IMG/VR virus record: IMGVR_UViG_2529293040_000016
From: a virus
Lineage: Duplodnaviria > Heunggongvirae > Uroviricota > Caudoviricetes
DNA: 16,688 nucleotides
Direction: 5' to 3' (one strand)
Numbering within the stretch: position 1 is the stretch's first letter; every line of letters starts with the position of its first letter. Below, one piece after another: positions 3,121 through 11,087 of the stretch. The notes beneath the pieces were generated by a model. It was not told where the DNA came from, ran no database searches, and worked only from the letters and a program-made list of their open reading frames with translations. The translations under genes and the position numbers were made by a program.

Positions 3121-3173
3121 CGGCGGCAGAGCAGTCACGGAGTAAAACTGATACCGCCAAACGTCACCAGAAA
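3121..3173 (-). ncRNA. dicF: DicF small regulatory RNA (ftsZ-targeting sRNA of Qin-type prophages)
   Basis: Reverse complement of 3121-3173 reads TTTCTGGTGACGTTTGGCGGTATCAGTTTTACTCCGTGACTGCTCTGCCGCCG, essentially identical to the DicF sequence as I remember it, followed by a U-run on the minus strand. Correct position upstream of dicB. Confidence 0.8.
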
Positions 3174-3783: not shown

Positions 3784-4156
3784 TTTTAATTGTTGTTTTG
3801 AAATAATCACTGCTTTCACATTTGAGTGATTTCATGGCAATCCAAATGCGGGCCTCTGTGCCTGCATTTGGTTCCAGTTGCTGTAGACGTTTTGCGTCTT
3901 CCAAAAGTAAGGCGATAATGTGTTTCAGCTTCTCATCATTTGCTTGATTCTTGTTTTCAGGCGAATTCTGTCCGCCGAATAGGCGCTTCTCTTCATACAG
4001 ACCTATAAAGGCACGACGCACGTTACCGGATATAGTATCGATGGTTTCTTTTTCTACGGTACTCAGGTCAAGAGTCGCCAGTTGAGAGCGAACCACATTC
4101 GATGCCATTTCCTGGAATGGTACTGGTAAATCTTTAAATTCCATCGTCAACCTCAT
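3743..4156 (-). CDS. Hypothetical protein (137 aa) in dicB-type operon
   Basis: Track ORF. Start overlaps the stop of the upstream small gene as TGATG; an alternative ATG at 4144 has GAGG upstream. No family recognised. Confidence 0.6.
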   Translation of the reverse strand: MRLTMEFKDLPVPFQEMASNVVRSQLATLDLSTVEKETIDTISGNVRRAFIGLYEEKRLFGGQNSPENKNQANDEKLKHIIALLLEDAKRLQQLEPNAGTEARIWIAMKSLKCESSDYFKTTIKTTQLSGELLKKLP

Positions 4157-4308
4157 CAGTCAGTGTTTCTGGTTAACCAGCGACGCGCGCCAGCTTCAGT
4201 TTTAAACGTTTTGCTTCTGGTATACGTCATCGCGGTAAACGTGCCGTCCTGGTTGGGGAACACGCCACATACCAGAGATTCGTTGTTGCCAAGATTGAGC
4301 ATATCCAT
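4156..4308 (-). CDS. Small protein (about 50 aa), first gene of the leftward operon (YdfA-like by size and position)
   Basis: Track ORF 4156..4389; the internal ATG at 4308 has GAGG 5 nt upstream, whereas the longer N-terminal extension has no SD. Naming is inference from synteny only. Confidence 0.45.
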   Translation of the reverse strand: MDMLNLGNNESLVCGVFPNQDGTFTAMTYTRSKTFKTEAGARRWLTRNTD

Positions 4309-4493
4309 GTTGACCTCATTTCCCCTTAACGCCGGGGTAGCGGAACAAAAACCTGCTGCATAGTTATTAAAGTTGAACCCTGCCGTCATGTTCTTACGCC
4401 TCGGGCTGGCTACTTAACCCCTGACCACTGCCTGGTAACTCGAAGTATTGCCCTGCATTCTGTGGGGCGGGGTGGGTTGGTATGAAAAGAAGG

Positions 4494-4532
4494 ATACCCA
4501 TAGGTATTTAAAAAGTAAATACCTATGGGTAA
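4494..4532. promoter_or_regulatory. 39-bp near-perfect palindrome (ATACCCATAGGTATTTA - 5 bp - TAAATACCTATGGGTA), candidate left operator/promoter region
   Basis: Inverted repeat read directly from the sequence, between the repressor 3' end (4574) and the first leftward gene (4308). Half-site CCATAGGTA recurs in the repressor/cro intergenic region. Could alternatively act as an AT-rich terminator hairpin. Confidence 0.5.
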
Positions 4533-4573
4533 ATTTTTGCGGGGTCTTAACTGGTGACTAGTTGTTTGGTGAG

Positions 4574-4992
4574 CTATGATGCGTTTTGTGCTTTCTTTTT
4601 ACGGATTTCTTCGTAGATCATATTGTAATACTGTTTTTTCTCTTCAAGAGTTTTTAATAATTTATCCGCTTCACTTTCTGGCAGTTCGTCTAAGAGATCT
4701 AAAAAAATACGTTGTCGTGGCGTTAGAACCCTTGTTTCATAACTGGAGGCTGTGTTCGTTGATGATGAAACGATACCATCCATCCATCCCCGGGGTAACC
4801 CAAAGGACTCTTCGATAATCTCCACCATATCATCAGCGATCCGTTTTTTCCCTTTTTCCCCTCTGGGTACAACATTCTTGATACATAAGAAGGCTCGCGC
4901 CCGATCTTTCTGGCCACGTTAACCGCTTTACCATCGCATTTCTCATCACGAATTTTGATGAGTTGCTGTCGTCTAAATTCATATTTGTCCAT
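4574..4992 (-). CDS. Immunity repressor (N-terminal HTH) encoded in two overlapping frames; apparent -1 frameshift at an A/G homopolymer tract
   Basis: Track ORFs 4723..4992 (HTH-like ...GKAVNVARKIGREPSYVSRML...) and 4574..4828 (protein-like C-terminus ...LTPRQRIFLDLLDELPESEADKLLKTLEE...) are on the same strand, offset by -1. Both frames are open across the minus-strand GGGGAAAAAGGGAAAAAACGG tract (plus-strand 4843-4862). The ATG at 4992 has no SD. Confidence 0.6.
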
Positions 4993-5092
4993 AGGTAAAT
5001 AATAGATGCGATTACCGCAAGGTAAACAACCTGTGGGTATTGACTTTTGTTTACCTGCGGGTGTTCTTTGCTGTGTTTACTAAGGAGTAGCT
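4993..5092. promoter_or_regulatory. Divergent promoter/operator region between repressor and cro-like gene
   Basis: Repeated half-sites CCATAGGTAAAT (4989-5000), an imperfect inverted repeat ACCGCAAGGTAAAC (5013-5026) / GTTTACCTGCGGGT (5048-5061), and a TTGACT -35-like hexamer at 5040-5045. Promoter -10 elements not confidently assigned. Confidence 0.5.
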
Positions 5093-5374
5093 ATGGAAGA
5101 ATTAAGAATATTTCTCAATTCTCTTTCGTCAGATGAACAGCGTATGTTTGCATGCGAGTGTGGTACCAGCATCGGTTATCTAAGAAAGGCATTGAGTAAA
5201 GGTCAAGTGTTAGGGGCATCGTTATGTGTCCTTATTGAGCGAGCCAGTAATGGTGAAGTTACACGTCAGCAACTAAGGCCTTTTGATTGGATGAATATTT
5301 GGCCCGAGCTGGAAGATACCAAAACGTTAACACAACCACTTTCTAGGAGCTTGATTCATGAAAATCAAGCATGA
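5093..5374 (+). CDS. Cro-like HTH regulator (YdaS/DicC-type)
   Basis: Track ORF, 93 aa, strong SD AAGGAG upstream. HTH-like segment ...CECGTSIGYLRKALSKGQ.... Divergent from the repressor, which is the classical cro position. Confidence 0.75.
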   Translation: MEELRIFLNSLSSDEQRMFACECGTSIGYLRKALSKGQVLGASLCVLIERASNGEVTRQQLRPFDWMNIWPELEDTKTLTQPLSRSLIHENQA

Positions 5375-5783
5375 ACACATCCGCATGGCGATGAATGTCT
5401 GGGCGCATCCGGACGGCGAAAAAGTGCCGGCTGCGAAAATTACCAAAGCGTATTTCGAGCTGGGAATGACGTTCCCGGAACTGTATGACGACAGCCATCC
5501 GGAAGCCCTGGCCCGTAATACCCAGAAAATTTTCCGTTGGCTGGATAAAGACACCCCTGATGCTGTTGAAAAAATGCAGGCTCTGTTACCGGCGATCGAA
5601 AAGGCGATGCCGCCTTTGCTGGTGGCCCGTATGCGCAGCCACAGTTCTGAATATTACCGTGAGATCGTCGAACGGAGGGATCGGCTGGTGAAGGATGTCG
5701 ATGATTTTGTTGCGTCAGCGGTTGTTTTGTATGACCAGATGAATCGCGGCGGCCCGGCAGGGAATGCTGTGGTGATGCACTAA
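5358..5783 (+). CDS. YdaT-like / CII-like early regulator (141 aa)
   Basis: Track ORF with TAGGAG SD 8 nt upstream. Sequence resembles Rac YdaT as I recall it; position is that of cII. Family assignment is from memory, not computed. Confidence 0.7.
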   Translation: MKIKHEHIRMAMNVWAHPDGEKVPAAKITKAYFELGMTFPELYDDSHPEALARNTQKIFRWLDKDTPDAVEKMQALLPAIEKAMPPLLVARMRSHSSEYYREIVERRDRLVKDVDDFVASAVVLYDQMNRGGPAGNAVVMH

Positions 5784-10755: not shown

Positions 10756-10874
10756 GACTGCGGGTGCTTGAGGCTATCTGTCTCAGGCATGAACACCAAA
10801 AGGCAGATAGAGAAAAGCCCCAGTTAACATTACGCGTCCGGCAAGACGCTTAACATTAATCTGAGGCCATATCT

Positions 10875-11087
10875 ATGCTCTACACACGTAGGTTAGCCTC
10901 TTACGTGCCGAAAGGCAAGGAGAAGCAGGCTATGAAGCAGCAAAAGGCGATGTTAATCGCCCTGATCGTCATCTGTTTAACCGTCATAATGACGGCACTG
11001 GTAACGAGGAAAGACCTCTGCGAGGTACGAATCCGAACCGGCCAGACGGAGGTCGCTGTCTTCACAGCTTACGAACCTGAGGAGTAA
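10875..11087 (+). CDS. mok: Mok-like regulatory ORF (in-frame N-terminal extension of hok)
   Basis: 70-aa track ORF containing the hok ORF in the same frame, as in chromosomal mokC/hokC loci (recalled). Confidence 0.55.
   Translation: MLYTRRLASYVPKGKEKQAMKQQKAMLIALIVICLTVIMTALVTRKDLCEVRIRTGQTEVAVFTAYEPEE
10932..11087 (+). CDS. hok: Hok/Gef-family type I toxin (51 aa)
   Basis: MKQQKAMLIALIVICLTVIMTALVTRKDLCEVRIRTGQTEVAVFTAYEPEE is a clear Hok-family sequence (TM helix plus conserved ...TRKDLCEV...RTGQTEVAVF...). AAGGAG SD 9 nt upstream of the ATG. Confidence 0.85.
   Translation: MKQQKAMLIALIVICLTVIMTALVTRKDLCEVRIRTGQTEVAVFTAYEPEE

Follow-up and report, generated by a model that had tools for sequence, protein, structure and literature searches.

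The stretch of DNA analysed here (IMG/VR virus record IMGVR_UViG_2529293040_000016; 16,688 nucleotides, referred to at its full length as the window) is, to judge by its sequence, an Escherichia coli lambdoid prophage of the Rac/Qin/CP-933P type, and it is very likely that positions 4491-5067 within it form the immunity switch of that prophage, in which a repressor would act on operator dyads at either end of its own gene (OL to the left, OR to the right). The repressor gene (ATG at 4992, minus strand) and a cro-like gene (ATG at 5093, plus strand) diverge from one another, with three dyads and a weak fourth one between them lying over the back-to-back promoters PRM and PR. Beyond the repressor gene is a second operator set, in which exact dyads starting at 4495 and 4520 are accompanied by -35- and -10-like boxes in register with PR. 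The original prediction, made from the letters alone, had proposed just such a lambda-like OL/OR logic, with one repressor recognising sites at both ends of its gene, and comparative sequence data argue for it on several grounds: the fixed positions of the dyads across 43 loci, the matching layout of phage mEp043, a domain swap in phage Tritos and the restriction of variation to the N4 centres of the sites. From the co-variation of the DNA-binding domain with the motif we infer repressor binding and cooperativity on the dyads; looping, activation and transcript ends are predictions too.

The repeats in the two regions were first described as half-sites, a description that has to be replaced: every copy reduces to a whole 12-base-pair (bp) dyad, TACC-N4-GGTA, which is exact where it starts at 4495, 4520 and 5013, carries one mismatch at 5028 and 5052, and two at 4987. 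To the left of the repressor gene, a repeat finder returned a perfect inverted repeat, TACCCATAGGTATTTA (4495-4510) and TAAATACCTATGGGTA (4516-4531), with 16-nucleotide (nt) arms that are 100% complementary across a 5-nt spacer. The near-perfect palindrome of 39 bp originally seen at 4494-4532 is to that extent real, the 17th base, at 4494, being unpaired; as a single element it is better read as two operators, their centres 25 bp apart, which flank the -35 of a predicted leftward promoter, PL, and overlap its -10. By our own estimate, chance would produce a perfect 16-nt hairpin in 16.7 kilobases (kb) with odds of about 1e-4 or less. To the right, the sequence CCATAGGTAAAT recurs at 4989-5000 exactly as had been claimed, and a related dyad does lie there, at 4987-4998; it is the weakest of the copies and is not conserved outside E. 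coli. The second inverted pair, placed originally at 5013-5061, is also genuine once shifted by one base (ACCGCAAGGTAAAC at 5014-5027 and GTTTACCTGCGGGT at 5049-5062), and it brackets a TTGACT -35-like element at 5040-5045 as described. What the first inventory overlooked is a further copy at 5028-5039 (AACCTGTGGGTA), which abuts the -35 of PR.

Within the whole 16.7-kb window there are only three exact dyads, all of them inside 4495-5063. Allowing up to one mismatch, nine are found where 3.65 are expected, a number reached in two of 200 shuffles, and five of these nine fall in the same interval. No other repeated motif was visible to the repeat finder in either the OL or the OR region. Within the 83-87 E. 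coli copies available from IMG/VR and complete genomes, substitutions fall nearly all in the N4 centres whilst the TACC and GGTA quartets are fixed, and over all 160 sites the centre takes the form Y-N-N-R. Both the resulting operator consensus, TACC-YNNR-GGTA, and the family of the DNA-binding domain appear to be undescribed, the searchable literature having yielded nothing relevant on the operator strings, the RefSeq protein accessions or the operators of mEp043.

Comparison was extended beyond E. coli by scanning one genome per species, which retrieved 43 loci encoding the DNA-binding domain of the repressor from Gamma- and Betaproteobacteria, covering Yersinia, Edwardsiella, Klebsiella, Pantoea, Aeromonas, Neisseria, Paraburkholderia, Xanthomonas and Stenotrophomonas. 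In the 166 bp ahead of the repressor ATG, the density of dyads with at most one mismatch is 13.9 per kb, compared with 0.47 per kb elsewhere, and these dyads stand at near-fixed offsets of about -73, -48 and -33 from that ATG (-71, -47 and -32 in the window). The shared upstream skeleton runs TTTACC-N4-GGTAA, about 9 nt, TCAATACC-N4-GGTTATTTACC-N4-GGTAA, about 9 nt, a -10-like hexamer, 6-7 nt and ATGGAYAAATA. Even the imperfection of the dyad in the OR2 position is conserved, in that its non-consensus base lies nearly always at the same end: when the repressor strand is read, 14 of 27 loci have GGTT and nearly all of the others GGGA, GGTC or GGCA. Most of the dyads counted as lying elsewhere form pairs beyond the 3' end of the repressor gene, their members 24-26 bp apart; the first is followed by TTGAC and the second overlaps a -10, an arrangement present in 34 of 46 loci. 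Phage mEp043 (Aguilavirus, NC_019706) has three dyads at OR and two at a promoter that its depositors annotated as a putative PL.

The CI protein of phage Tritos (L004 2420-2960) has the DicA-like C-terminal domain of the window's repressor in common with it, joined to a different N-terminal helix-turn-helix. Downstream of the Tritos gene, GTAC-type repeats occupy the same place as the dyads of the window, and the flank is that of window positions 4440-4480. As the flanking DNA is the same and both the helix-turn-helix and the repeats are different, a mosaic joint would lie directly beside the operators. The DNA-binding domains of two Advenella loci, L043 and L047, are 35-38% identical to that of the window, and TACC-N4-GGTA is absent from both. 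These two loci carry another palindrome, of the type ATACCGC..GCGGTAT, at about -60 to -35 from the ATG, and this suggests, at the level of sequence, a diverged specificity inside the same domain family. Five Klebsiella loci (L008, L011-L013 and L016), which encode 242-amino-acid homologues of the S24 type, keep OR1- and OR3-like dyads, with the OL pair in four of the five; they lack OR2 and the divergent YdaS-like gene, so that their upstream architecture differs.

Table 1. Predicted operators and promoters of the immunity region, with the genes and RNAs around them, listed from left to right along the window.
Feature	Position	Strand	Sequence or elements	Remarks
Exonuclease, dicB, DicF RNA	left of the DUF1391/ydfA-like gene			first in left-to-right gene order
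DicF antisense RNA	3121-3172	-		72.5 bits, above the Rfam gathering threshold; within the PL operon
DUF1391/ydfA-like gene	4156-4389	-		first gene of the PL operon; Pfam DUF1391, 97 bits
Predicted PL	4491-4519	-	-35 TTTACT (4519-4514), 17-nt spacer, -10 TATCCT (4496-4491)	
OL1	4495-4506		TACCCATAGGTA	exact dyad; overlaps minus-strand PL -10
Candidate terminator hairpin (OL2, spacer, OL1)	4495-4531	-	followed by UCCUUCUUUU	
OL2	4520-4531		TACCTATGGGTA	exact dyad; directly upstream of PL -35
Repressor gene	4574-4992	-		139 amino acids when intact (WP_000362153.1 type); frameshifted in the window; PHROG 5736
Weak fourth site	4987-4998		TGTCCATAGGTA; minus strand TACCTATGGACA	two mismatches; over repressor ATG and predicted PRM +1
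Predicted PRM	4999-5026	-	-35 TTTACC (5026-5021), 16-nt spacer, -10 TATTAT (5004-4999)	
OR3	5013-5024		TACCGCAAGGTA	exact dyad; overlaps PRM -35
OR2	5028-5039		AACCTGTGGGTA	one mismatch; abuts PR -35
PR	5040-5067	+	-35 TTGACT (5040-5045), 16-nt spacer, -10 TGTTCT (5062-5067)	
OR1	5052-5063		TACCTGCGGGTG (GGTA in relatives)	one mismatch; overlaps PR spacer and -10
cro-like gene, YdaS family	5093-5374	+		Pfam YdaS_toxin 25.8 bits (below the 30-bit cutoff); PHROG 35, E = 5e-23
CII-like gene, YdaT family	5358-5783	+		Pfam YdaT_toxin 40.9 bits (cutoff 21); PHROG 163 'CII-like'
Replication genes	right of the YdaT-like gene			beyond the CII-like gene in gene order

The promoters of the switch (Table 1) fit around these sites. 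PRM is the only promoter-like element that a promoter scan called within 4100-5400, and it is called in relatives too. The -10 of PR is TATTCT in nearly all relatives and TGTTCT in the window owing to an A-to-G change at 5063; the scan calls PR in relative L002 and not in the window. The predicted PL lines up in register with the PR module over 20 nt (80% complementary), and likewise with the TTGAC-type -35 that follows OL2 in related loci. If PRM starts at 4992, OR1 is centred at -65.5, OR2 at -41.5 and OR3 at -26.5. In lambda, OR1 and OR2 lie near -66 and -42 from PRM. With OR2 at -41.5, and by analogy with that lambda spacing, activation of PRM by repressor bound at OR2 is plausible.

The original prediction had also observed that the repressor ATG at 4992 has no Shine-Dalgarno sequence and directly follows an AT-rich stretch, which is correct: it is preceded by TATTAT-TTACCT, such that the -10 ends 6 nt before the ATG. 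The cro-like gene, with its ATG at 5093, is preceded by a strong Shine-Dalgarno sequence, AAGGAG. The start codon of the repressor can be taken as fixed because the N-terminus, M-D-K-Y-E, is invariant, and the distance from the PRM -10 to the ATG, which begins 7 nt after it, implies a leaderless repressor mRNA, as had been hinted at. A -10-like hexamer ending 6-7 nt before the repressor ATG is found in 31 of 45 loci, and a Shine-Dalgarno-like tetramer in only six of the 45, which supports leaderlessness as a conserved, predicted trait of these repressors; a precedent exists in prophage CP-933P of E. coli O157:H7, where the repressor mRNA, paaR2, is proven to be leaderless (PMC8630535).

Taken together, these elements suggest how the switch would operate. 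A repressor dimer would bind the 12-bp TACC-N4-GGTA dyad. OL2 and OL1 flank the -35 and overlap the -10 of PL, from which the operon of the ydfA-like gene, DicF and dicB would be transcribed leftwards, and OR2 and OR1 abut the -35 and overlap the -10 of PR, which would serve the cro-like ydaS, the cII-like ydaT and the replication genes. Repressor held at OR1/OR2 and OL1/OL2 would therefore turn both early promoters off, whilst at OR2 it may stimulate its own promoter, PRM; OR3, and possibly the site over the ATG, would provide negative autoregulation. The Cro-like protein probably competes for the same dyads. Transcription from PRM would begin on the A of the start codon (4992) or beside it, giving the leaderless repressor mRNA.

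The repressor itself lies outside the coverage of Pfam: neither the intact protein nor either frameshifted half matches any Pfam family, even at E = 10, and the assignment available is to PHROG 5736, 'transcriptional regulator'. An AlphaFold2 model (mean predicted local distance difference test score, pLDDT, 85.6) has a five-helix N-terminal domain, which contains a helix-turn-helix (residues 23-40) with a predicted recognition helix at about 34-40 (EPSYVSR); a disordered linker (77-86) leads from it to a helical hairpin at the C-terminus. The best match of the model among solved structures is weak (E = 1.6e-3) and is to 5d50/5d4z, the short, antirepressor-controlled Rep of a Salmonella temperate phage, followed by the controller (C) proteins of restriction-modification systems, HigA and SinR. 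Sequence searches of the PDB, with the single protein and with a profile, returned nothing for the DNA-binding domain, only chance matches or matches to the S24 part of long-form relatives.

Two kinds of C-terminal domain are found joined to this DNA-binding domain. Residues 1-72 recur at 65-82% identity as the N-terminus of LexA/S24-family repressors of 220-242 amino acids in many Enterobacterales and beyond, with the conserved sequence MDKYE..R..LI.IRDE.C.GKAV.VAR.I.REPSYVSRMLYPEGKKGKKRIADDM... The C-terminal domain of these long forms matches that of lambda CI at E = 1e-23, and PF00717 is the only Pfam entry listed for them in precomputed annotation. In the window, the C-terminal domain instead resembles residues 84-129 of DicA from the K-12 Qin prophage (NC_000913; 33% identity over 46 residues, E = 2e-7), with an NCBIfam DicA match that falls below the cutoff. 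The long-form and short-form matches thus place the same DNA-binding domain, in different lineages, either on a lambda-CI-type S24 peptidase domain (proteins of 220-242 amino acids) or on a short DicA-like helical domain (135-140 amino acids). The LexA-like S24 autocleavage domain is absent from the intact 139-amino-acid repressor, which has no Pfam domain and ends in the DicA-like helical hairpin, and RecA-dependent induction is therefore not expected. Its absence does not remove the window from the lambdoid switches, since many lambdoid prophages (CP-933P, Rac and Qin) lack S24, and the domain defines the lambda subtype rather than the switch. A LexA-box scan aimed at an SOS-controlled antirepressor found one exact CTGT-N8-ACAG, within a long open reading frame, and no enrichment.

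In the window, this switch has probably decayed, given that the repressor is frameshifted and the -10 of PR is changed; alternatively, the frameshift is a homopolymer sequencing error. The frameshift arises from a run of six T at 4844-4849 where relatives have seven (A6 for A7 on the coding strand) and truncates the protein after residue 49. None of 822 genome copies is identical to the window over 4820-5080, the best reaching 99.2%, or two differences. None of about 83 haplotyped relatives shares the A-to-G change at 5063, which converts the GGTA of OR1 to GGTG and damages the PR -10 at its critical second base. The T7-to-T6 frameshift has arisen independently in IMG/VR contig L089 as well, where the PR -10 is the normal TATTCT. 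The T run is thus either a hot spot for mutation or repeatedly misread in sequencing, and neither lesion requires the other. Strain E2348/69 has an intact repressor together with a variant PR -35, TTGGTT. The idea that the -10 mutation compensates for loss of the repressor was considered and, as a rule, finds no support in L089, frameshifted with TATTCT, or in E2348/69, with TTGGTT beside an intact repressor.

Several points weigh against reading 4491-5067 as a repressor-operated immunity switch. Reports of binding, footprinting or transcript mapping for this repressor or its homologues were not found in the searchable literature, and in the window the repressor is a pseudogene. PL matches the sigma-70 consensus at 8 of 12 positions, which is under the threshold of the scan, and is uncalled. 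The site at 4987-4998 is invariant among E. coli relatives and absent from other genera, and its sequence is in part set by the Met-Asp-Lys codons; it may serve as a further point of autoregulation or amount to no more than those codons beside a chance TACC. Finally, most loci encode both the repressor and the Cro-like protein, and comparison alone cannot for that reason fully assign the motif to one of the two.

That last point leaves room for a reading in which TACC-N4-GGTA is recognised only by the Cro-like, YdaS-family protein, with the repressor binding something else. A YdaS-like gene diverges from the repressor gene in 33 of the 43 loci and in mEp043, and in CP-933P the footprints of YdaS and of the repressor cover one and the same region (PMC8630535). 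However, seven loci, five of them in Klebsiella, have no YdaS-like gene within 3 kb and nonetheless keep the dyads upstream of the repressor, most also keeping the OL pair, which is why the motif is assigned to the repressor domain; moreover, the dyads are positioned relative to the repressor ATG and PRM, and the repeat finder showed no alternative motif in either region. We consider recognition by the Cro-like protein alone improbable. That the repeats play no part in regulation, being chance similarities or a relic (of transposon ends or an attachment site, for instance), can draw on nothing beyond the general frequency of short repeats, many of the two-copy repeat families in the window being chance matches, and it is opposed by the clustering statistics, by position-specific conservation in two proteobacterial classes and by variable centres set between invariant quartets. 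The conservation of position across loci effectively refutes it, and next to no weight attaches to it.

More serious is the proposal that the palindrome at 4495-4531 is the intrinsic terminator of the repressor transcript from PRM, instead of or besides a pair of operators, preventing that transcript from running into the PL operon; we regard this as possible, if on balance doubtful. A terminator-like element is called there on both strands in the window and, in relative L002, just on the minus strand, the minus-strand RNA of 4470-4580 has a minimum free energy of -23.2 kcal/mol (z = -6.2), and a scan found no other terminator-like element between the stop codon at 4574 and OL. In contrast, mEp043 has a separate GC-rich terminator in that place, and Qin has a candidate hairpin and T-run directly after dicA (our own reading of the sequence, unscanned). 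The stem is nevertheless AU-rich, with 5 GC pairs of 16, and the U-rich tail, UCCUUCUUUU, is interrupted. Complementarity that extends past the dyads (TTTA/TAAA) and between the N4 centres is confined to this E. coli lineage, where all 16 pairs are kept, allowing G.U, in 83 of 87 copies on the minus-strand RNA versus 16 of 87 on the plus strand. This asymmetry, however, comes from very few mutational events, chiefly one high-frequency G.U pair, and the copies were ascertained with bias by a search pattern that fixed the flank of one arm; the right-arm flank doubles as the -35 of PL, and the arms could also stay alike without selection, through template-switch correction of quasi-palindromes. 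One stem pair does show a double change, from U-A to C-G. Hairpin covariation was considered as a further line of evidence and set aside: that pair is the only one with a double change, the shuffles are marginal (3/500 for percentage paired and covariation score, 154/500 for the number of pairs) and the sample is biased. A terminator and nothing else would not account for the 34 of 46 loci in which the same dyad pair, spaced 24-26 bp apart and accompanied by -35 and -10 boxes, is conserved without the extended pairing, and the exclusive reading is rejected on that ground. A broader proposal would give the OL pair, grown in this E. coli lineage into a perfect 16-bp hairpin, both roles within one 37-bp element, repressor-controlled operator-promoter of PL as DNA and, on the repressor-sense strand, terminator of the leaderless repressor transcript as RNA, and would treat the repressor DNA-binding domain, the TACC-N4-GGTA operators, the YdaS-like Cro and the leaderless PRM as an ancient cassette of Gamma- and Betaproteobacteria, fused to a cleavable or a non-cleavable domain, with the E. 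coli copy conferring SOS-blind immunity against mEp043-type phages; in its entirety, this combination strikes us as rather unlikely.

With the palindrome read as a pair of operators, the window can be set beside switches that are already characterised, of which the closest by function is the PaaR2/YdaS/YdaT system of CP-933P. There, the OR sites are bound by the repressor and YdaS, and PL/OL lies beyond the repressor operon (PMC8630535), whilst YdaT acts as CII (PMC9986795). Like the window, CP-933P has a short, peptidase-less repressor whose gene points away from ydaS-ydaT. In both, repeated operators overlie PR and PRM within about 100 bp of intergenic DNA, PL has an operator set of its own, and the repressor mRNA is leaderless, as proven in CP-933P and predicted in the window. 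CP-933P differs in using 18-bp inverted repeats of the GTTTAGTAA type as operators in place of TACC-N4-GGTA, and in carrying the paaA2-parE2 toxin-antitoxin genes after the repressor, of which the window has none. Rac shares the gene layout, the DUF1391 neighbour and inverted-repeat operators, three of which lie in the racR-ydaS intergenic region, one over the racR ATG (PMC9638921); unlike the window, it uses RacR, which has no sequence similarity to the window's repressor, and the operator (T/A)TAGGC-N3-GCCTA(T/A) (PMC9638921, PMC5700373). In Qin (DicA/DicC), too, the repressor is followed by ydfA (DUF1391) and then DicF and dicB, and by our own reading of the sequence dyad repeats stand on both sides of dicA. 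The likeness of DicA to the window's repressor is limited to the C-terminal domain; the DNA-binding domain is another, the operators are of the TTAGC/GCTAA type, and dicA apparently has its own hairpin terminator (the latter two again by our own reading).

Lambda is like the window in its divergent repressor and cro genes, its dyads over PR and PRM with a second set at PL past the repressor gene, its promoter-proximal pair spacing of 24-25 bp and its -10-to-ATG distance implying a leaderless mRNA; its CI also has the S24-type C-terminal domain found in the long-form relatives of the window's repressor. The lambda dyad, however, is 17 bp long rather than 12 and there are three OL sites rather than two, whereas in the window just 15 bp separate the centres of OR2 and OR3 and the repressor lacks the S24 autocleavage domain. 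The N-terminal domain of lambda CI has no detectable sequence similarity to the DNA-binding domain of the window. In mEp043, the DNA-binding domain of cI is 65% identical to that of the window over residues 1-86, EPSYVSRMLY being identical, the Cro-like protein is 73% identical, and the dyad and the OR and OL layout are the same; mEp043 differs in its 228-amino-acid cI with an S24 peptidase domain, in having a separate terminator before OL, and in its lambda-type cII and N, with no ydaT.

The surroundings of the switch agree with the assignment of the window to this group of prophages. The window is 99.5-99.6% identical to the prophage adjoining ompW in E2348/69, and its immunity region is found in 822 of 5426 complete E. 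coli genomes (about 15%). It contains the module of the Rac/Qin/CP-933P type, in which a YdaS-family Cro-like gene is followed by a YdaT-family CII-like gene. Across the ydaT start codon at the ydaS/ydaT junction, at 5351-5368, lies an exact YdaT box, TTGATT-N6-AATCAA (TTGATTCATGAAAATCAA), the sole exact copy in the window, with two matches at up to two mismatches against 1.55 expected, and the box is present in 79 of 86 relatives. The same sequence in the same position has been footprinted in CP-933P (PMC9986795), and in the window it probably marks a PRE-like leftward promoter activated by YdaT. Elsewhere in the window, the sok antitoxin RNA of a hok/sok locus is recognised at 10762-10937 (plus strand; 117 bits, above the Rfam gathering threshold).

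Whilst the type of switch is well known, novelty of a modest kind may be claimed for the operator consensus and the DNA-binding domain family, which appear undescribed, for the depth to which the cassette is conserved and for OL possibly serving as a terminator as well as an operator. The analysis provides an operator consensus and a promoter map for an immunity type carried by those 822 complete genomes, including E2348/69 and ST131 strains, and proposes a DNA target for a widespread helix-turn-helix domain outside Pfam coverage. In these prophages, the repressor is predicted to hold down PL, with the cell-division inhibitors DicF and dicB, as well as PR, with ydaS and ydaT, genes that in Rac are toxic when derepressed (PMC5700373). 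A knowledge of the operators would thus help in forecasting which strains stand ready for growth arrest driven by the prophage. Furthermore, since one DNA-binding domain is carried on either a cleavable or a non-cleavable C-terminal domain, cross-immunity is predicted between cryptic prophages and inducible phages such as mEp043, a view of lysogenic control in which the lambda paradigm is extended rather than overturned.

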